Assembly (NCBI RefSeq): GCF_003790525.1
Contig: NZ_CP033635.1
DNA length: 64,000 nucleotides
Reading direction: 5' to 3' (one strand)
Source of the DNA: Escherichia coli
GTDB taxonomy: Bacteria; Pseudomonadota; Gammaproteobacteria; Enterobacterales; Enterobacteriaceae
Below, piece after piece: positions 15,649 through 54,526 of the stretch. The notes below the pieces were generated by a model, which was not told the DNA's origin, made no database searches, and was given only the letters and a program-made list of their open reading frames with translations. The position numbers and the translations under genes are program-made. Every line of letters starts with the position of its first letter. Positions within the stretch are counted from its first letter, which is position 1.

Positions 15649-18002
<2,354 letters not shown>

Positions 18003-18248: not shown

Positions 18249-18404
18249 ATGATCCGTCTACAGCATGACAAACAAAAACAGATGCGTTACGGAACTTTAC
18301 AAAAACGAGACACTCTAACCCTTTGCTTGCTCAAATTGCAGCTAATGGAGTGGCGTTTCGATAGCGCGTGGAAATTTGGTTTGGGGAGACTTTACCTCGG
18401 ATGA
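18249..18404 (+). CDS. rseD: rpoE leader peptide (51-codon upstream ORF coupled to rpoE)
   Basis: ATG at 18249 opens a 51-codon frame (MIRLQHDKQKQMRYGTLQKRDTLTLCLLKLQLMEWRFDSAWKFGLGRLYLG) whose TGA overlaps the rpoE ATG as ATGA (18401-18404). Length matches the described ORF51/rseD. Confidence 0.65.
   Translation: MIRLQHDKQKQMRYGTLQKRDTLTLCLLKLQLMEWRFDSAWKFGLGRLYLG
18291..18318 (+). promoter_or_regulatory. sigmaE-dependent promoter (rpoE P2-type)
   Basis: GGAACTT (18291-18297), 16-bp spacer, TCTAA (18314-18318); fits the sigmaE consensus GGAACTT-N16-TCAAA. Confidence 0.75.
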
Positions 18405-19659: not shown

Positions 19660-20615
19660 TGAAGCAACTTTGGTTTGCCATGTCATTAGTGACAGGTAGC
19701 CTGTTATTCTCTGCTAACGCCTCGGCCACTCCCGCGTCCGGGGCGTTATTACAGCAGATGAACCTGGCCAGTCAGTCACTGAATTACGAGCTGTCATTCA
19801 TCAGCATCAATAAACAGGGTGTTGAGTCTCTGCGTTATCGACATGCACGCCTCGATAACCGTCCTCTTGCACAATTGTTGCAAATGGATGGCCCGCGCCG
19901 GGAAGTGGTACAGCGCGGCAATGAGATCAGCTATTTTGAACCGGGACTTGAACCGTTCACGCTTAATGGCGATTACATTGTTGATTCTCTGCCATCGCTC
20001 ATCTATACCGATTTCAAACGCCTTTCTCCTTACTACGACTTTATCTCCGTCGGGCGCACGCGTATTGCTGATCGTCTTTGCGAAGTTATTCGCGTGGTTG
20101 CCCGAGATGGTACACGCTACAGCTACATCGTGTGGATGGACACCGAATCGAAATTACCGATGAGGGTTGATCTCCTTGATCGCGATGGTGAAACGCTGGA
20201 ACAATTTCGCGTGATTGCTTTTAATGTCAATCAGGATATCAGCAGCAGTATGCAGACGCTGGCGAAGGCAAATTTGCCGCCGTTGCTTTCTGTTCCTGTA
20301 GGTGAAAAAGCTAAATTCAGCTGGACGCCAACCTGGTTGCCACAGGGTTTTAGCGAAGTTTCCAGTAGTCGACGTCCGCTACCGACGATGGACAACATGC
20401 CTATTGAATCACGTCTCTATTCCGACGGATTATTCAGCTTCTCGGTAAACGTTAACCGCGCTACGCCATCGAGCACCGATCAGATGTTGCGCACCGGACG
20501 CAGAACCGTCAGTACAAGCGTACGTGATAACGCCGAAATCACCATTGTCGGTGAACTGCCGCCGCAAACGGCGAAACGCATTGCCGAGAATATTAAGTTC
20601 GGGGCAGCGCAATGA
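19659..20615 (+). CDS. rseB: sigmaE regulatory protein RseB
   Basis: 318-aa ORF with signal peptide (MKQLWFAMSLVTGSLLFSANASA); start overlaps the rseA stop by 1 nt (TAATG). Confidence 0.95.
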   Translation: MKQLWFAMSLVTGSLLFSANASATPASGALLQQMNLASQSLNYELSFISINKQGVESLRYRHARLDNRPLAQLLQMDGPRREVVQRGNEISYFEPGLEPFTLNGDYIVDSLPSLIYTDFKRLSPYYDFISVGRTRIADRLCEVIRVVARDGTRYSYIVWMDTESKLPMRVDLLDRDGETLEQFRVIAFNVNQDISSSMQTLAKANLPPLLSVPVGEKAKFSWTPTWLPQGFSEVSSSRRPLPTMDNMPIESRLYSDGLFSFSVNVNRATPSSTDQMLRTGRRTVSTSVRDNAEITIVGELPPQTAKRIAENIKFGAAQ

Positions 20616-21091
20616 TCAAAGAGTGGGCTACCGTCGTCTCCTGGGAAAACGGGCAGGCGCTGGTTAGTTGTGATGTTAAAGCCTCATGCAGCAGCTGCGC
20701 TTCACGCGCCGGTTGCGGTAGCCGCGTGTTGAATAAACTTGGCCCGCAAACCACGCATACCATTGTCGTACCCTGTGATGAACCGTTAGTGCCGGGGCAA
20801 AAAGTAGAATTAGGAATCGCCGAAGGCAGCCTGCTTAGCTCCGCATTACTGGTTTATATGTCGCCGTTGGTGGGACTATTCCTCATCGCTTCACTATTTC
20901 AGCTACTCTTTGCTTCAGATATTGCAGCATTATGCGGTGCGATTCTCGGTGGCGTTGGTGGATTCCTGATTGCACGTGGCTGCTCTCGAAAGTTTGCTGC
21001 CCGGTCTGAATGGCAACCGATCATCTTAAGCGTGGCCTTGCCGCCTGGCCTTGTGCGATTTGAAACATCTTCGGAAGACGCGAGCCAGTGA
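20612..21091 (+). CDS. rseC: sigmaE regulatory protein RseC
   Basis: 159-aa ORF, N-terminal cysteine cluster (CSSCASRAGC) and two TM segments; ATGA overlap with rseB. Confidence 0.93.
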   Translation: MIKEWATVVSWENGQALVSCDVKASCSSCASRAGCGSRVLNKLGPQTTHTIVVPCDEPLVPGQKVELGIAEGSLLSSALLVYMSPLVGLFLIASLFQLLFASDIAALCGAILGGVGGFLIARGCSRKFAARSEWQPIILSVALPPGLVRFETSSEDASQ

Positions 21092-21287
21092 TTTCACTGG
21101 CTTTGTTGCATTTTGCATAACAAATGCGAGGACGTTTCCAGATACCCAATCCATACGGTATGAACATTTCCTCGCCTCAATGTTGTAGTGTAGAATGCGG
21201 CGTTTCTATTAATACAGACGTTAAGCTCAGAACAGCGACTTCTAAAAGCCTGGTTAACCGGGCATTAAGGCACAATAATCATACTTT

Positions 21288-23087
<1,800 letters not shown>

Positions 23088-24122: not shown

Positions 24123-24223
24123 ATTATTTATGAGATAAATCTCCCGTGGCTAACGACATCCCCCGTCGTTGTGTATAGAATATTCCCCCGAAGTTTAAGG
24201 TTGGCACCTCCAGGTTGCCACGG

Positions 24224-24315
24224 CACACGAAACAGCGTTGGTCCCCATATACCGGTAAACTGAAACTGCAGCGAAGCAGTTAGCAGAACCATGTATATCA
24301 GGTCTGTTTCGTGTG
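24224..24315 (+). promoter_or_regulatory. rnc 5' leader long-range stem (candidate RNase III autoregulatory structure)
   Basis: 12-nt arms CACACGAAACAG (24224-24235) and CTGTTTCGTGTG (24304-24315) are exact reverse complements in the untranslated leader upstream of the rnc ATG. Confidence 0.55.
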
Positions 24316-24319
24316 CTGA

Positions 24320-25932
<1,613 letters not shown>

Positions 25933-27811: not shown

Positions 27812-27900
27812 TTATAAAGTAAAACCCCCGAACTGGTAAGGAACGGGGGTTTTACTTTACAACTTTAATTTTGTGCAGCACACGATTCCAACGGAAATGA
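27812..27900 (-). ncRNA. ohsC: OhsC antitoxin sRNA (approximate boundaries)
   Basis: Minus-strand segment between the bidirectional terminator and a candidate -10 (RC of 27899-27904 = CATAAT). Contains the antisense of GTGCAGCACACGATTCCAA (27873-27891), an 18/19 match to the shoB 5' UTR copy at 28122-28140. Ends are not determined. Confidence 0.5.
27818..27856. terminator. bidirectional rho-independent terminator (acpS on + strand, ohsC on - strand)
   Basis: AGTAAAACCCCCG-aactggtaaggaa-CGGGGGTTTTACT palindrome; both strands give a G/C stem followed by UUUUACUUUA. Confidence 0.8.
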
Positions 27901-32871: not shown

Positions 32872-35800
32872 ATGATGGAAATTCTGCGTGGTTCGCCTGC
32901 ATTGTCGGCATTCCGAATCAACAAACTGCTGGCACGTTTTCAGGCTGCCAGGCTCCCGGTTCACACTATTTACGCCGAGTATGTCCATTTTGCTGACCTC
33001 AATGCGCCGTTAAACGATGATGAGCACGCACAACTTGAACGCCTGCTGAAATATGGCCCGGCACTCGCCAGCCACGCCCCGCAAGGCAAACTCCTGCTGG
33101 TGACCCCGCGTCCTGGCACCATCTCTCCCTGGTCTTCGAAAGCGACCGATATCGCCCATAATTGCGGTCTACAACAGGTAAACCGCCTTGAGCGCGGCGT
33201 GGCTTACTATATAGAAGCCGGTACGCTGACCAATGAACAATGGCAGCAGGTGACCGCTGAACTGCACGACCGCATGATGGAAACGGTCTTTTTTGCTTTA
33301 GATGATGCAGAGCAGTTGTTTGCTCATCATCAGCCAACCCCGGTCACCAGCATTGATTTGCTGGGGCAGGGCCGTCAGGCGCTAATCGACGCTAACCTGC
33401 GTCTTGGTCTGGCGCTGGCGGAAGATGAGATTGACTATCTGCAGGATGCGTTCACAAAGCTTGGTCGTAACCCGAACGACATCGAGCTGTATATGTTCGC
33501 GCAGGCGAACTCCGAGCACTGCCGTCACAAAATTTTTAACGCCGACTGGATTATCGACGGTGAACAGCAGCCGAAATCGCTGTTCAAGATGATCAAAAAC
33601 ACCTTCGAAACCACGCCAGACCACGTTCTCTCTGCTTATAAAGATAACGCCGCCGTAATGGAAGGTTCTGAAGTGGGTCGCTACTTTGCCGACCACGAAA
33701 CGGGCCGCTACGATTTCCATCAGGAACCGGCGCATATTCTGATGAAAGTTGAAACCCACAACCACCCGACGGCGATTTCTCCGTGGCCGGGCGCGGCGAC
33801 CGGTTCCGGCGGTGAAATCCGCGATGAAGGTGCCACCGGCCGCGGCGCGAAGCCGAAAGCTGGCCTGGTCGGTTTCTCCGTATCCAACCTGCGTATTCCT
33901 GGCTTTGAACAACCGTGGGAAGAAGATTTCGGTAAGCCTGAGCGCATTGTCACCGCGCTGGACATCATGACAGAAGGTCCGCTGGGCGGCGCGGCATTTA
34001 ACAACGAATTTGGTCGTCCGGCACTGAACGGCTACTTCCGTACCTATGAAGAAAAAGTGAACAGCCACAATGGCGAAGAGCTGCGCGGTTATCACAAACC
34101 GATCATGCTGGCGGGTGGGATCGGCAACATTCGCGCCGATCACGTACAAAAAGGCGAGATCAACGTTGGTGCGAAGCTGGTCGTTCTCGGCGGCCCGGCA
34201 ATGAACATCGGTCTTGGCGGCGGCGCGGCGTCTTCTATGGCATCTGGTCAGTCTGATGCGGACCTCGACTTTGCTTCCGTACAGCGCGACAACCCGGAGA
34301 TGGAGCGTCGCTGCCAGGAAGTGATCGACCGTTGCTGGCAGCTTGGTGATGCCAACCCAATCCTGTTTATCCACGACGTTGGCGCAGGCGGTCTTTCTAA
34401 CGCCATGCCGGAACTGGTGAGCGACGGCGGGCGCGGCGGTAAATTTGAACTGCGCGATATCCTGAGCGACGAGCCAGGCATGAGCCCGCTGGAGATCTGG
34501 TGTAACGAATCCCAGGAACGCTACGTGCTGGCGGTTGCTGCCGATCAGTTACCGCTGTTTGACGAACTGTGTAAGCGTGAACGAGCACCCTACGCGGTGA
34601 TTGGCGAGGCCACCGAAGAATTACATCTTTCTCTGCACGATCGTCATTTTGATAATCAACCCATCGATCTGCCGCTGGACGTACTGCTTGGTAAAACGCC
34701 GAAGATGACCCGCGAAGTACAAACGCTGAAAGCGAAGGGTGATGCGCTGGTTCGTGAAGGGATTACCATTGCTGACGCGGTGAAACGCGTGCTGCACCTG
34801 CCGACCGTGGCGGAGAAAACTTTCCTGGTGACCATTGGTGACCGCAGCGTAACCGGCATGGTAGCGCGCGATCAGATGGTGGGTCCGTGGCAGGTGCCGG
34901 TCGCTAACTGCGCGGTCACTTCCGCCAGCCTCGATAGCTACTACGGCGAAGCGATGGCGATTGGCGAGCGTGCGCCGGTTGCGCTGCTGGATTTCGCCGC
35001 CTCTGCCCGTCTGGCGGTCGGTGAAGCGTTAACCAATATTGCCGCAACACAGATTGGCGATATCAAACGCATTAAACTTTCCGCCAACTGGATGGCGGCG
35101 GCAGGCCACCCTGGTGAAGATGCGGGCCTGTATGAAGCCGTTAAAGCTGTGGGCGAAGAACTTTGTCCGGCGCTGGGCCTGACGATCCCGGTGGGTAAAG
35201 ACTCTATGTCGATGAAAACCCGCTGGCAGGAAGGTAACGAAGAGCGCGAAATGACGTCGCCGCTGTCGCTGGTGATTTCTGCATTTGCCCGTGTGGAAGA
35301 TGTGCGTCACACCATCACGCCGCAGCTTTCTACCGAAGATAACGCATTACTGCTGATTGATCTGGGCAAAGGCAATAACGCGCTGGGCGCAACGGCGCTG
35401 GCGCAGGTTTATCGTCAGCTTGGCGACAAACCGGCAGATGTACGCGACGTTGCCCAACTGAAAGGCTTCTATGACGCGATTCAGGCGCTGGTTGCACAGC
35501 GTAAGCTGCTCGCGTACCACGACCGCTCGGATGGCGGCCTGCTGGTAACGCTGGCGGAAATGGCGTTTGCTGGTCATTGTGGCATTGACGCAGATATCGC
35601 CTCTCTGGGTGACGATCGCCTGGCTGCGTTGTTTAACGAAGAACTGGGTGCGGTGATTCAGGTTCGTGCCGCTGACCGTGAAGCGGTCGAGTCCGTACTG
35701 GCACAGCATGGACTTGCGGATTGCGTCCATTATGTAGGGCAGGCGGTTTCCGGTGACCGTTTTGTGATTACCGCCAACGGGCAGACTGTATTCAGCGAAA

Positions 35801-36759
35801 GCCGCACTACGTTGCGTGTCTGGTGGGCAGAAACTACCTGGCAGATGCAGCGCCTGCGTGACAACCCGGAGTGTGCCGATCAGGAACATCAGGCGAAATC
35901 TAACGACGCCGATCCGGGCCTGAATGTGAAACTGTCGTTTGATATCAACGAAGATGTGGCAGCACCGTATATTGCCACCGGTGCGCGTCCGAAAGTTGCC
36001 GTGCTGCGTGAGCAGGGTGTGAACTCGCATGTTGAAATGGCGGCAGCTTTCCACCGTGCAGGCTTCGATGCAATCGATGTGCATATGAGCGACCTGCTGG
36101 CTGGACGCACGGGACTGGAGGATTTCCACGCCCTGGTCGCGTGCGGTGGTTTCTCCTACGGTGATGTACTGGGTGCCGGTGAAGGTTGGGCGAAGTCTAT
36201 CCTGTTCAATGACCGTGTACGCGATGAGTTTGCAACCTTCTTCCACCGTCCGCAAACGCTGGCGCTGGGGGTATGTAACGGTTGCCAGATGATGTCTAAT
36301 CTGCGCGAACTGATCCCAGGCAGTGAGTTGTGGCCACGTTTTGTGCGCAATACCTCCGATCGCTTTGAAGCGCGTTTCAGCCTGGTTGAAGTAACCCAAA
36401 GCCCGTCTCTGCTGTTGCAGGAGATGGTGGGCTCGCAAATGCCGATTGCTGTCTCTCATGGTGAAGGGCGCGTGGAAGTGCGTGATGCGGCGCATCTGGC
36501 GGCGCTGGAAAGTAAAGGGCTGGTGGCACTGCGCTATGTCGATAACTTCGGCAAAGTCACTGAAACCTACCCGGCTAACCCGAACGGTTCTCCGAATGGT
36601 ATTACGGCGGTCACGACTGAAAGTGGTCGAGTCACTATTATGATGCCGCACCCGGAACGTGTTTTCCGTACTGTCAGCAACTCCTGGCATCCGGAAAACT
36701 GGGGCGAGGATGGCCCATGGATGCGCATTTTCCGCAATGCACGTAAGCAGTTGGGGTAA
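32872..36759 (+). CDS. purL: phosphoribosylformylglycinamidine synthase
   Basis: 1295 aa from [26 protein letters not shown]...; large-type FGAM synthetase with C-terminal glutamine amidotransferase ([12 protein letters not shown]); the ORF-track ORF starts 37 codons upstream, across the pur box. Confidence 0.96.
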
Positions 36760-36783
36760 GCCGTCAAACTCATTGTTTTTGCA

Positions 36784-36816
36784 GCCCGGATGAGGCATTC
36801 ACGCCGCATCCGGCAT
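36784..36816. repeat. REP element
   Basis: GCCCGGATGAGGCATTCACGCCGCATCCGGCAT imperfect palindrome; shares TTCACGCCGCATCCGGCAT with the second REP at 54493-54526. Confidence 0.75.
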
Positions 36817-36837
36817 TAAGCACCAACCGCTATTATA

Positions 36838-36862
36838 AGCTCCCAACTTCGGGAGCTTTTTT
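36838..36862 (+). terminator. rho-independent terminator downstream of purL
   Basis: AGCTCCC-aacttc-GGGAGCT hairpin followed by TTTTT. Confidence 0.85.
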
Positions 36863-36863
36863 G

Positions 36864-36977
36864 TGTCTGTAAATCACGACAATGGGTGGTTTACCGTGTC
36901 GCTTTCTGGCGACACTTAACTGATTGATTTTAATATTATCTAATAAGTTTATCTTAAGTTGTCTCTTTTTAGCGACA
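36864..36977 (+). promoter_or_regulatory. upstream activating region with three TGTC-N10-GACA sites (GlrR/QseF-type)
   Basis: TGTCtgtaaatcacGACA (36864-36881), TGTCgctttctggcGACA (36897-36914), TGTCtctttttagcGACA (36960-36977), all upstream of the sigma54 promoter. Confidence 0.8.
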
Positions 36978-37066
36978 CAGTGGCTGATTTACATTCAAAT
37001 AGCGAAGAAGCCATAAATCCCTCAAAGCAGCGTATAATCAGTACGTTACCAAACTATTTTCTTTAT

Positions 37067-37082
37067 TGGCACAGTTACTGCA
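37067..37082 (+). promoter_or_regulatory. sigma54 promoter of glmY
   Basis: TGGCACagttaCTGCA: -24 GG and -12 GC with canonical spacing; overlaps a sigma70-like -10 (CATAAT). Confidence 0.85.
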
Positions 37083-37093
37083 TAATAGTAACC

Positions 37094-37277
37094 AGTGGCT
37101 CATTCACCGACTTATGTCAGCCCCTTCGGGACGTGCTACATAAAATTCGAATGACGCACAACAAGGTGCCTGCCGTCCAACTTCTGATATCAGCGTAGCT
37201 ATATCAACCCTCGGGCGAAACGTCGAGTTAGGCACCGCCTTATTCCATAACAAAGCCGGGTCATTCCCGGCTTTGTT
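37094..37277 (+). ncRNA. glmY: GlmY small regulatory RNA
   Basis: Starts ~12 nt after the -12 element (AGTGGCTCATTCACCGACTTATGTCAGCCCCTTCGGG...) and ends at the AAAGCCGGG-tcatt-CCCGGCTTT hairpin plus TGTTGTAT (37252-37277); no plausible ORF. 3' end approximate. Confidence 0.8.
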
Positions 37278-37335
37278 GTATCTGAACTTCCCCTCGGTTA
37301 GCATCAGGCTATTCGCGTCTGACGAGAGTAACACC

Positions 37336-38763
37336 TTGAAACGCTGGCCCGTTTTTCCCCGCTCATTACGACAACTGGTAATGCTGGCATTTTTGCTGAT
37401 TCTGCTACCCCTGTTGGTGCTGGCATGGCAAGCCTGGCAAAGCCTGAATGCGCTTAGCGATCAGGCGGCGCTGGTTAACCGCACTACGCTTATTGATGCC
37501 CGGCGCAGTGAAGCGATGACCAACGCGGCGCTGGAGATGGAGCGTAGCTACCGTCAGTATTGCGTGTTGGACGACCCAACCCTGGCGAAGGTTTATCAAA
37601 GCCAGCGCAAGCGTTACAGCGAAATGCTCGATGCCCACGCAGGCGTGCTGCCGGACGATAAACTCTACCAGGCATTACGTCAGGACTTGAACAATCTGGC
37701 TCAACTTCAGTGTAACAACAGCGGTCCCGATGCCGCCGCCGCCGCGCGTCTGGAAGCCTTTGCCAGTGCCAATACCGAAATGGTGCAGGCCACGCGCACA
37801 GTGGTGTTCTCTCGTGGGCAGCAACTTCAGCGTGAAATCGCCGAACGTGGGCAATATTTTGGTTGGCAATCGCTGGTGCTATTTCTGGTGAGTCTGGTGA
37901 TGGTGCTACTTTTCACGCGGATGATTATCGGGCCGGTGAAAAATATCGAGCGCATGATCAACCGGCTGGGGGAAGGGCGTTCTCTGGGCAATAGCGTCTC
38001 GTTCAGTGGACCGAGCGAGTTACGCTCGGTTGGGCAACGTATTCTTTGGTTAAGTGAGCGCCTGTCATGGCTGGAATCCCAACGCCATCAATTTTTAAGA
38101 CATTTATCTCATGAATTAAAAACCCCGCTGGCGAGTATGCGCGAGGGCACTGAATTACTGGCAGACCAGGTTGTCGGGCCGCTTACGCCCGAGCAAAAAG
38201 AGGTGGTGAGCATCCTTGATAGCAGCAGCCGCAATTTGCAAAAACTGATCGAACAACTGCTTGATTACAACCGTAAACAAGCGGACAGTGCGGTGGAACT
38301 GGAGAATGTTGAGTTAGCACCGCTGGTGGAGACAGTAGTTTCTGCTCATAGCCTGCCCGCACGGGCTAAAATGATGCATACCGACGTTGATCTCAAAGCA
38401 ACAGCTTGCCTGGCGGAGCCAATGCTGCTGATGAGCGTACTGGATAATCTTTACTCCAATGCGGTGCACTACGGGGCTGAATCCGGTAACATTTGCCTCC
38501 GCAGCAGTTTACATGGTGCGCGGGTTTATATTGATGTCATCAATACAGGCACGCCCATTCCGCAAGAGGAACGCGCCATGATCTTCGAACCCTTTTTTCA
38601 GGGAAGCCACCAGCGAAAAGGGGCGGTGAAGGGCAGCGGTCTGGGATTAAGCATTGCCAGGGATTGTATTCGCCGTATGCAAGGGGAACTGTATCTGGTC
38701 GACGAGAGCGGGCAAGATGTTTGTTTCCGCATTGAATTACCGTCGTCGAAAAACACGAAATAA
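37336..38763 (+). CDS. glrK: two-component sensor histidine kinase
   Basis: 475 aa assuming the TTG start at 37336 (…KRWPVFPRSLRQLVMLAFLLI…); HisKA H-box LSHELKTPLASM and HATPase region (GSGLGLSIARD). Also called qseE. Confidence 0.9.
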   Translation: MKRWPVFPRSLRQLVMLAFLLILLPLLVLAWQAWQSLNALSDQAALVNRTTLIDARRSEAMTNAALEMERSYRQYCVLDDPTLAKVYQSQRKRYSEMLDAHAGVLPDDKLYQALRQDLNNLAQLQCNNSGPDAAAAARLEAFASANTEMVQATRTVVFSRGQQLQREIAERGQYFGWQSLVLFLVSLVMVLLFTRMIIGPVKNIERMINRLGEGRSLGNSVSFSGPSELRSVGQRILWLSERLSWLESQRHQFLRHLSHELKTPLASMREGTELLADQVVGPLTPEQKEVVSILDSSSRNLQKLIEQLLDYNRKQADSAVELENVELAPLVETVVSAHSLPARAKMMHTDVDLKATACLAEPMLLMSVLDNLYSNAVHYGAESGNICLRSSLHGARVYIDVINTGTPIPQEERAMIFEPFFQGSHQRKGAVKGSGLGLSIARDCIRRMQGELYLVDESGQDVCFRIELPSSKNTK

Positions 38764-38927: not shown

Positions 38928-39641
38928 ATGCGACACATTTTTCAACGATTATTGCCCCGACGGCTGTGGCTGGCAGGGCTGCCATGTCTGGCATTGCTGG
39001 GTTGCGTGCAGAGTCACAATAAGCCAGCCATTGATACGCCAGCAGAAGAAAAAATTCCGGTTTATCAACTGGCTGACTATCTTTCTACTGAATGTAGCGA
39101 CATCTGGGCGCTGCAAGGTAAATCAACCGAAACCAATCCGCTTTACTGGCTGCGGGCGATGGATTGTGCTGATCGTTTAATGCCTGCGCAGTCGCGTCAG
39201 CAAGCCCGCCAATATGACGACGGCAGCTGGCAAAATACCTTTAAACAAGGGATTTTGCTCGCCGACGCCAAAATTACGCCGTATGAGCGCCGCCAGCTGG
39301 TCGCGCGCATTGATGCGCTAAGTACCAAGATCCCGGCACAGGTTCGCCCTCTGTATCAACTCTGGCGCGACGGTCAGGCGCTGCAACTGCAACTGGCGGA
39401 AGAGCGCCAACGCTACAGTAAACTCCAGCAGTCCAGCGACAGCGAGCTGGATACTTTGCGCCAGCAACATCACGTTCTACAACAGCAACTGGAACTCACC
39501 ACCCGCAAGCTGGAAAACCTGACTGATATTGAACGCCAGCTCTCGACCCGCAAACCGGCTGGAAATTTCTCGCCGGATACGCCACACGAGAGTGAAAAGC
39601 CCGCGCCATCCACCGATGAGGTCACTCCTGATGAGCCATAA
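38928..39641 (+). CDS. qseG: outer-membrane lipoprotein of the GlrK/GlrR system
   Basis: 237 aa from MRHIFQRLLPRRLWLAGLPCLALLGCVQ...; lipobox LLGC; Q/L-rich coiled-coil C-terminus. Formerly yfhG. Confidence 0.88.
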   Translation: MRHIFQRLLPRRLWLAGLPCLALLGCVQSHNKPAIDTPAEEKIPVYQLADYLSTECSDIWALQGKSTETNPLYWLRAMDCADRLMPAQSRQQARQYDDGSWQNTFKQGILLADAKITPYERRQLVARIDALSTKIPAQVRPLYQLWRDGQALQLQLAEERQRYSKLQQSSDSELDTLRQQHHVLQQQLELTTRKLENLTDIERQLSTRKPAGNFSPDTPHESEKPAPSTDEVTPDEP

Positions 39642-40965
39642 ACCTGCGCATTTATTATTGGTCGATGACGATCCGGGATTGCTGAAACTGCTTGGCCTGC
39701 GTCTGACCAGCGAAGGCTACAGCGTGGTCACAGCGGAAAGTGGCGCTGAAGGATTACGGGTACTGAATCGCGAAAAAGTAGATTTAGTCATCAGCGACCT
39801 GCGGATGGATGAAATGGACGGTATGCAGCTGTTTGCTGAAATCCAGAAAGTGCAGCCGGGAATGCCAGTAATTATTCTTACCGCGCATGGTTCTATTCCT
39901 GATGCCGTTGCTGCAACACAGCAGGGCGTGTTCAGTTTTCTCACCAAGCCTGTCGATAAAGATGCGCTATATCAGGCAATTGACGATGCGCTGGAACAAT
40001 CCGCGCCAGCCACCGACGAACGCTGGCGCGAGGCGATTGTCACCCGCAGCCCGCTGATGCTGCGCTTGCTGGAACAGGCGCGGCTGGTGGCACAATCAGA
40101 CGTTAGCGTTTTGATTAACGGCCAGAGCGGCACCGGGAAAGAGATTTTCGCCCAGGCTATCCACAACGCGAGCCCGCGCAACAGCAAACCATTTATTGCT
40201 ATTAACTGTGGCGCATTGCCCGAGCAGTTGCTGGAGTCGGAGCTGTTTGGTCATGCACGTGGCGCGTTTACTGGCGCTGTCAGCAATCGCGAAGGTTTAT
40301 TCCAGGCGGCGGAAGGCGGTACGCTATTTCTTGATGAGATTGGCGATATGCCTGCACCGTTGCAGGTCAAACTGCTGCGCGTGTTGCAGGAGCGTAAAGT
40401 GCGCCCGCTGGGCAGTAACCGCGATATTGATATCGACGTGCGGATTATTTCTGCCACTCACCGCGACCTGCCAAAAGCGATGGCGCGCGGGGAATTCCGC
40501 GAAGATCTCTATTACCGCCTCAACGTTGTCAGCCTGAAAATTCCGGCACTGGCGGAGCGCACAGAAGACATTCCGCTACTGGCAAATCACCTGTTGCGCC
40601 AGGCGGCAGAGCGACATAAACCGTTTGTCCGCGCGTTCTCCACCGATGCGATGAAACGTCTGATGACCGCTAGCTGGCCGGGTAATGTGCGCCAGTTGGT
40701 CAACGTGATTGAACAGTGCGTGGCGCTGACCTCATCTCCGGTGATTAGTGATGCGCTGGTGGAGCAGGCGCTGGAGGGTGAAAATACGGCGCTGCCAACC
40801 TTTGTTGAGGCACGTAATCAGTTTGAACTCAACTATTTGCGTAAGCTGCTGCAAATTACCAAAGGCAACGTCACCCACGCGGCGAGAATGGCGGGGCGCA
40901 ACCGGACAGAATTTTATAAACTGCTTTCCCGACACGAGCTGGATGCAAACGATTTCAAGGAATGA
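39631..40965 (+). CDS. glrR: sigma54-dependent response regulator
   Basis: 444 aa from [21 protein letters not shown]...; receiver domain, AAA+ sigma54-activator motifs ([15 protein letters not shown]) and C-terminal HTH. Overlaps the qseG 3' end by 11 bp. Also called qseF. Confidence 0.93.
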
Positions 40966-40989: not shown

Positions 40990-41364
<375 letters not shown>

Positions 41365-54492: not shown

Positions 54493-54526
54493 ATGCCGGA
54501 TAAGGCGTTCACGCCGCATCCGGCAT
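54493..54526. repeat. REP element
   Basis: ATGCCGGATAAGGCGTTCACGCCGCATCCGGCAT palindrome between convergent yphB and yphA. Confidence 0.8.

Follow-up and report, generated by a model that had tools for sequence, protein, structure and literature searches.

Within the window, the 64-kb stretch of Escherichia coli DNA analysed here, positions 36864–37277 are almost certainly the E. coli glmY gene together with its regulatory region. This identification draws on the positions of the regulatory motifs and their uniqueness in the window, on an RNA family match, on synteny and on the identities of the neighbouring proteins, all of which were directly observed. An earlier sequence-only reading had placed a glmY small RNA (sRNA) upstream of glrK, in a module with GlrK and GlrR, and here the Rfam match, the alignment to K-12 b4441, the identities of the downstream proteins and the published work all agree. 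The locus is an ordinary one, already known in full detail from work published between 2007 and 2020, and locally it stands out only by a minority glmY allele and by an intact REP element that K-12 lacks.

Genomic context

The gene lies in a spacer of 576 bp, a length that the sequence-only reading had given correctly, between the purL stop codon at 36759 and the TTG start of glrK at 37336. The upstream gene (32872–36759, + strand) encodes phosphoribosylformylglycinamidine synthase, matches NCBIfam NF003672 with 2273 bits and is named purL in the annotation of both strain SC516 and K-12. The glmY 3' end at 37277 falls just upstream of glrK, as it does in K-12 and SC516, and the gene order purL-glmY-glrK-qseG-glrR-glnB is the same in the window and in K-12, with the K-12 MG1655 record carrying an annotated ncRNA glmY (b4441, 184 nt) between purL and glrK. 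The spacer is 100% identical to that of E. coli SC516, with which the surrounding 12.6 kb share 99.97% identity. Homologues covering at least 80% of the 576-bp spacer were found in 5425 of 5426 complete E. coli genomes, in every case on the chromosome; a single genome lacked any match to the glmY region, and another carried two copies of it. Among the matches listed, RefSeq E. coli genomes with PGAP annotation, SC516 included, show no feature over 36760–37335. The sRNA is annotated in the curated K-12 record and is systematically unannotated in most assemblies.

The purL-proximal part of the spacer contains a REP element and the purL terminator, both of which had already been picked out from the bare sequence. 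The REP element (36786–36814, − strand) is an exact match to GCCGGATGCGGCGTGAAYGCCTYATCCGG, used here as the REP consensus; zero matches would be expected by chance, and a second copy is found in the window at 54496. In the alignment the REP downstream of purL in K-12 MG1655 is shorter by 18 nt (GCCCGGATG......CGGCA), while the window copy is intact, and in many E. coli genomes the alignment to the spacer query begins only at position 45 or 59. The K-12 gap and these late-starting alignments indicate that the species is polymorphic for this REP. The purL intrinsic terminator (36837–36863, + strand), detected by the terminator scan, consists of an 8-bp stem with a 6-nt loop (36837–36858) followed by a T run. 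Besides this terminator, the promoter/terminator scan returned one unrelated promoter-like site within purL.

The GlmY small RNA

Rfam family RF00128 (GlmY_tke1) matches positions 37094–37241 on the + strand with 145.2 bits (E = 5.6e-33), far above the gathering score of 33 bits and over the whole model (positions 1–163 of 163). This was the best match kept within Rfam clan CL00011 and the sole sRNA family match in the neighbourhood. GlmY is processed from 184 to 148 nt (PMC4152352), and the published length of the primary transcript puts its 3' end at 37277. The predicted primary transcript (37094–37277, + strand) aligns without gaps to K-12 b4441 at 181 of 184 bases, and the predicted processed, active form (37094–37241, + strand) comprises exactly the 148 nt of the Rfam match. 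The motif GCCUUAU, named as the GlmY processing-site motif (PMC8745638), was found at 37237–37243. As predicted from these features, the locus has the 184-nt transcript, the terminator and the 148-nt form ending in GCCUU/AU that are expected of GlmY.

The 184-mer has a predicted folding energy of −64.2 kcal/mol, compared with −45.6 ± 4.2 kcal/mol for shuffled sequences (z = −4.4), and is predicted to form two stem-loop domains in its 5' part and a terminator hairpin of 12 bp. This hairpin and the UUUGUU that follows it make up the glmY intrinsic terminator (37250–37277, + strand), which appears in both the MFE and the centroid fold and finishes at the annotated K-12 3' end; a non-coding transcript of about 184 nt closed by an intrinsic terminator, as the earlier reading had proposed, is therefore what the coordinates 37094–37277 describe. 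The simple promoter/terminator scan did not flag 37250–37277, probably as the T run is taken up into the A/U-extended stem, and we accepted the terminator on the basis of the fold and the K-12 annotated 3' end.

Activator sites, IHF sites and promoters

Three exact TGTC-N10-GACA palindromes, the predicted binding sites of the activator GlrR/QseF, lie upstream of the gene: site 1 (TGTCTGTAAATCACGACA, 36864–36881), site 2 (TGTCGCTTTCTGGCGACA, 36897–36914) and site 3 (TGTCTCTTTTTAGCGACA, 36960–36977), centred at −221.5, −188.5 and −125.5 respectively and together spanning −230 to −117 relative to A37094. No other exact match occurs in the 64-kb window, for which dinucleotide shuffling gives a mean of 0.75, and at that rate only about 7e-7 triplets within 114 bp would be expected. 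With one mismatch allowed, the window held 16 matches against 20.6 expected, with no enrichment elsewhere. The description of the palindromes as 'evenly built' in the sequence-only reading holds for their common build and their positions and fails for their spacing, the centres being 33 and 63 bp apart, in both cases near whole numbers of helical turns. All three sites are identical to those of K-12. According to PMC3045617, GlrR binds upstream of glmY, at a distance of over 100 bp, to three TGTCN10GACA motifs, of which site 1 is dispensable for promoter activity and sites 2 and 3 are essential; conservation across genera has been published for 39 genomes.

The IHF consensus WATCARNNNNTTR is matched exactly at two places near these sites, a distal one (AATCAATCAGTTA, 36917–36929, − strand) between activator sites 2 and 3 and a proximal one (AATCAGTACGTTA, 37036–37048, + strand) between site 3 and the promoter. 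The window contains seven exact matches in total, two of which thus flank activator site 3 within a stretch of 230 bp, and this enhancer-to-promoter stretch has a GC content of 36%, against 52% for the window. Both matches equal K-12 at every base that the consensus specifies; the distal one differs only at 36922 (G, against C in K-12), within the unspecified N4. Gopel et al. (PMC3045617) describe two IHF-like motifs flanking activator site 3, binding of IHF to the glmY upstream region, a requirement of the sigma-54 promoter for ihfA/B, and an essential role of the distal IHF-like site at that promoter. The matches at 36917–36929 and 37036–37048 would correspond to the published sites 1 and 2. 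With its predicted activator sites over 100 bp away from the start and a putative IHF site in between, the region has the layout of a sigma-54 promoter activated by an enhancer-binding protein.

The sigma-54 promoter TGGCAC-N5-CTGCA was located by pattern match at 37067–37082 (+ strand), with GG at 37068–37069 and GC at 37080–37081, and is the sole exact match to TGGCAC-N5-YTGCW in the 64-kb window. The GG and GC are spaced as in a sigma-54 promoter, C37081 lying at about −13/−12 relative to A37094. Where one mismatch was allowed, counts in the window were at or under the shuffle expectation, as they were for the activator motif, so that for both patterns the exact matches alone are informative. 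This element had previously been called 'canonical'; its position and uniqueness stand, and the one qualification is that its CTGCA is one base off the textbook −12 element TTGCA. The 17-mer TTGGCACAGTTACTGCA (37066–37082) is letter-identical to the sigma-54 motif OS24 assigned to glmY by ChIP-seq, and the −24/−12 element of glmY is among the strongest sigma-54 sites in E. coli by that method (PMC4591121).

A sigma-70 −10 box, CATAAT (37081–37086, + strand), can be read from the sequence where it overlaps the sigma-54 −12 element. Such an overlap had been noted beforehand, and it agrees with PMC3045617, in which CATAAT is the characterised sigma-70 −10 box overlapping the sigma-54 −12 element at glmY. 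The weak sigma-70 promoter is reported to use the same start base as the sigma-54 promoter and to be partly occluded by sigma-54 (PMC3045617, PMC7073468). The −24/−12 element, the −10 box and the start base are all identical to K-12. Transcription of K-12 glmY depends on rpoN, glrR, glrK and ihf (PMC3045617), and given the identity of the motifs the same dependence would be expected at the window copy.

The downstream qseEGF operon

Downstream of glmY, and separated from its 3' end by 58 bp, lie the genes of its presumed regulators, all on the + strand. The first, glrK/qseE (37336–38763, TTG start), encodes a sensor histidine kinase with Pfam HAMP, HisKA and HATPase_c domains and is so annotated in SC516 and K-12. 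It is followed by qseG (38928–39641), encoding an outer-membrane lipoprotein that is the third component of the system (NCBIfam NF007997, 359 bits; Pfam YfhG lipoprotein), and by glrR/qseF (39631–40965), encoding the sigma-54-dependent response regulator (NCBIfam NF011695; Pfam Response_reg, Sigma54_activat and AAA_lid_14); glnB, with a P-II domain, comes next (41026–41364). GlrR scored 982.3 bits against the equivalog model NF011695 (cut-off 763 bits) over residues 1–444 and has both a receiver and a Sigma54_activat domain, which establishes it as GlrR/QseF. Its C-terminal helix-turn-helix gave no separate Pfam match at E ≤ 0.001, that part of the protein being covered by NF011695, which extends over residues 1–444.

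The short gap of 58 bp invites the reading that glmY is a processed 5' leader of a glmY-qseEGF transcript, in which case the sigma-54 promoter would drive the two-component system itself in a positive autoregulatory loop. In Proteus, glmY and the two-component genes are in fact reported to be co-transcribed (PMC8745638). We nevertheless consider this arrangement unlikely in E. coli. The glmY gene is closed by a strong terminator, a 12-bp hairpin with a U tail, and from the terminator stem to glrK the sequence equals that of K-12, the sole substitution in the terminator lying in its loop (37262). In K-12, moreover, qseEGF has its own sigma-70 promoter, with a start 25 bp upstream of qseE (PMC6075780), and no transcriptional autoregulation of the operon was found (PMC6075780, PMC3045617). 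The corresponding promoter in the window is probably TTGTAT, 17 bp and TAGCAT (37276–37311, + strand), with hexamers that we picked by eye and a start near 37311. An own sigma-70 promoter and the lack of autoregulation imply that glmY and the two-component system are adjacent but transcribed independently; some read-through from glmY into glrK is possible.

Related RNAs and promoters

The independently transcribed sRNA has a close relative in GlmZ (Rfam RF00083), which is homologous, has a similar architecture of two stem-loops, belongs to the same clan CL00011 and likewise binds RapZ. In many enterobacteria GlmZ even shares the design of three activator sites, IHF and a sigma-54 promoter (PMC3045617). 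With such kinship, the RNA at 37094 could be imagined to be GlmZ, or a GlmZ-like sRNA that pairs directly with glmS mRNA, instead of the decoy GlmY. We rejected this identity, which we hold to be exceedingly improbable, on the grounds that GlmY provides the best match kept in the clan and that both the purL-glmY-glrK synteny and the K-12 annotation point to glmY. In addition, E. coli glmZ is located between aslA and hemY and has a sigma-70 promoter only, and GlmZ, unlike GlmY, carries a base-pairing site for glmS and is cleaved by RNase E with RapZ (PMC4152352, PMC3045617), whereas GlmY is reported to be without complementarity to glmS (PMC4152352). In K-12, GlmY sequesters RapZ and so protects GlmZ (PMC4152352, PMC7073468), and with 98% identity and an identical fold the window GlmY would be expected to act as the same RapZ decoy.

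Although both appear in the six-frame list, a small protein encoded by either the ORF at 36959–37198 (+ strand, 79 aa) or that at 37104–37334 (− strand, 76 aa) is scarcely credible and was rejected, as both ORFs have TTG or GTG starts and are absent from the annotation of K-12 and SC516, the first of them would run across the promoter and the start of transcription, and the structured RNA family match fully accounts for the region.

Apart from that of glmY, rpoE P2 is the sole promoter in E. coli reported to depend on QseF and sigma-54 (PMC6075780, PMC6358824), which means that both known GlrR/QseF targets lie in the window, within about 19 kb of each other. Like glmY, rpoE P2 is activated by QseF with the involvement of QseG and shares its start with a sigma-70 promoter, P3 (PMC6075780); unlike glmY, it drives a protein-coding gene and its motifs fit only the looser pattern TGT-N12-ACA. 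In the window, rpoE starts at 18401 (+ strand), and TGT-N12-ACA motifs are found at 18000 (TGTTTAATTTACTAAACA) and 18074 (TGTTACAGTTGCTAAACA), 401 and 327 bp upstream of its ATG. A crude, simple scan upstream of rpoE gave no convincing match to a −24/−12 element.

Other Rfam matches in the window comprised the last part of an rrn operon (the 3'-terminal 2.3 kb of a 23S rRNA together with a 5S rRNA, 1–2519), AsrC, the antisense RNA of rseC (20576–21406, − strand), the rncO leader (24190–24404, + strand) and OhsC, the antitoxin sRNA of the shoB/ohsC pair (27816–27892, − strand). All of these are as expected for the corresponding part of the E. coli chromosome.

Variation within the species

The closest known system is K-12 glmY (b4441, formerly sroF or tke1), whose overlapping sigma-54/sigma-70 promoter and upstream GlrR/QseF sites are described in Gopel 2011 (PMC3045617) and, reportedly, in Reichenbach 2009. 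The window resembles it in gene order, the 184-nt length, activator sites, promoter elements, terminator stem and fold, and differs by three substitutions in the RNA, about ten spacer substitutions outside the motifs and a REP region that is 18 nt longer. The three substitutions in GlmY are at nt 54 (U for A), 117 (C for A) and 169 (C for A), corresponding to 37147, 37210 and 37262 in the window; all three bases are unpaired, and neither the predicted fold nor its energy is changed by them. Nucleotide 117 lies in the internal loop of stem-loop 2, where the Rfam consensus has a conserved A in place of the C seen here. A 60-nt segment around C117 finds an exact match in only 152 of 5425 complete E. 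coli genomes, and 261 genomes reach an identity of 99% or more over the whole 414 bp. If the loop of stem-loop 2 contacts RapZ, the U54/C117/C169 allele might slightly shift the glucosamine-6-phosphate set-point, an effect that we regard as very improbable.

Seven E. coli alleles were compared (window, K-12, O157:H7, AST85, BH100, D3 and CE0007a; 94–100% identity), revealing 40 variable positions in the 414 bp. None of these falls in the TGTC/GACA half-sites, the −24/−12 element or the −10 box. Four lie within activator sites, all of them in the N10 spacers, and five within the GlmY RNA, all at unpaired bases; in one strain, AST85, the TTR portion of the distal IHF match is altered. Such a distribution would be expected under purifying selection on the known functional elements, in what is a small sample from a single species.

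Proposed regulatory circuit

Protein binding, sigma-factor dependence, RNA processing and the function as a RapZ decoy would carry over to this locus through its near-identity to the characterised K-12 locus. In the published scheme, GlrK is activated by QseG from the periplasm and by glucosamine-6-phosphate-free RapZ from the cytoplasm, and phosphorylates GlrR (PMC6075780; PMC7073468). Applied to the window by near-identity, GlrK with its QseG and RapZ inputs would generate phosphorylated GlrR (QseF), which would occupy the three TGTC-N10-GACA sites 221, 188 and 125 bp upstream of the start. IHF would bend the AT-rich DNA between the activator sites and the promoter, and the ATPase of the activator would then open the sigma-54 holoenzyme on TGGCAC-N5-CTGCA, with A37094 as the start; the weak sigma-70 promoter (CATAAT), also starting at A37094, may provide basal expression. 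GlrK, its lipoprotein partner QseG and GlrR would be made from the downstream genes with their own sigma-70 promoter.

The resulting transcript of 184 nt would end at the hairpin at 37250–37277 and then be trimmed to 148 nt. Processed GlmY would mimic GlmZ and sequester RapZ, the RNase E adaptor, with no pairing to glmS. In K-12 this decoy activity prevents the cleavage of GlmZ by RNase E, and GlmZ activates glmS translation (PMC4152352, PMC7073468); with RapZ sequestered, GlmZ in the present strain would likewise escape RNase E cleavage and glmS translation would rise when glucosamine-6-phosphate is scarce. Every element listed in the sequence-only reading was found where it had been placed and none of its statements proved wrong; it made no mention of the IHF sites, QseG, a separate promoter for qseEGF or the mechanism by which GlmY acts as a RapZ decoy.

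Since PGAP-annotated genomes such as SC516 list nothing over the spacer, the exact coordinates of glmY given here are useful for annotation, and the whole regulatory module of enhancer sites, sigma-54 promoter, sRNA and terminator proved recoverable from raw sequence. For the biology of E. coli the locus brings nothing new: it is part of the thoroughly characterised GlmY/GlmZ/RapZ/QseEF circuit of GlmS and cell-envelope precursor supply.
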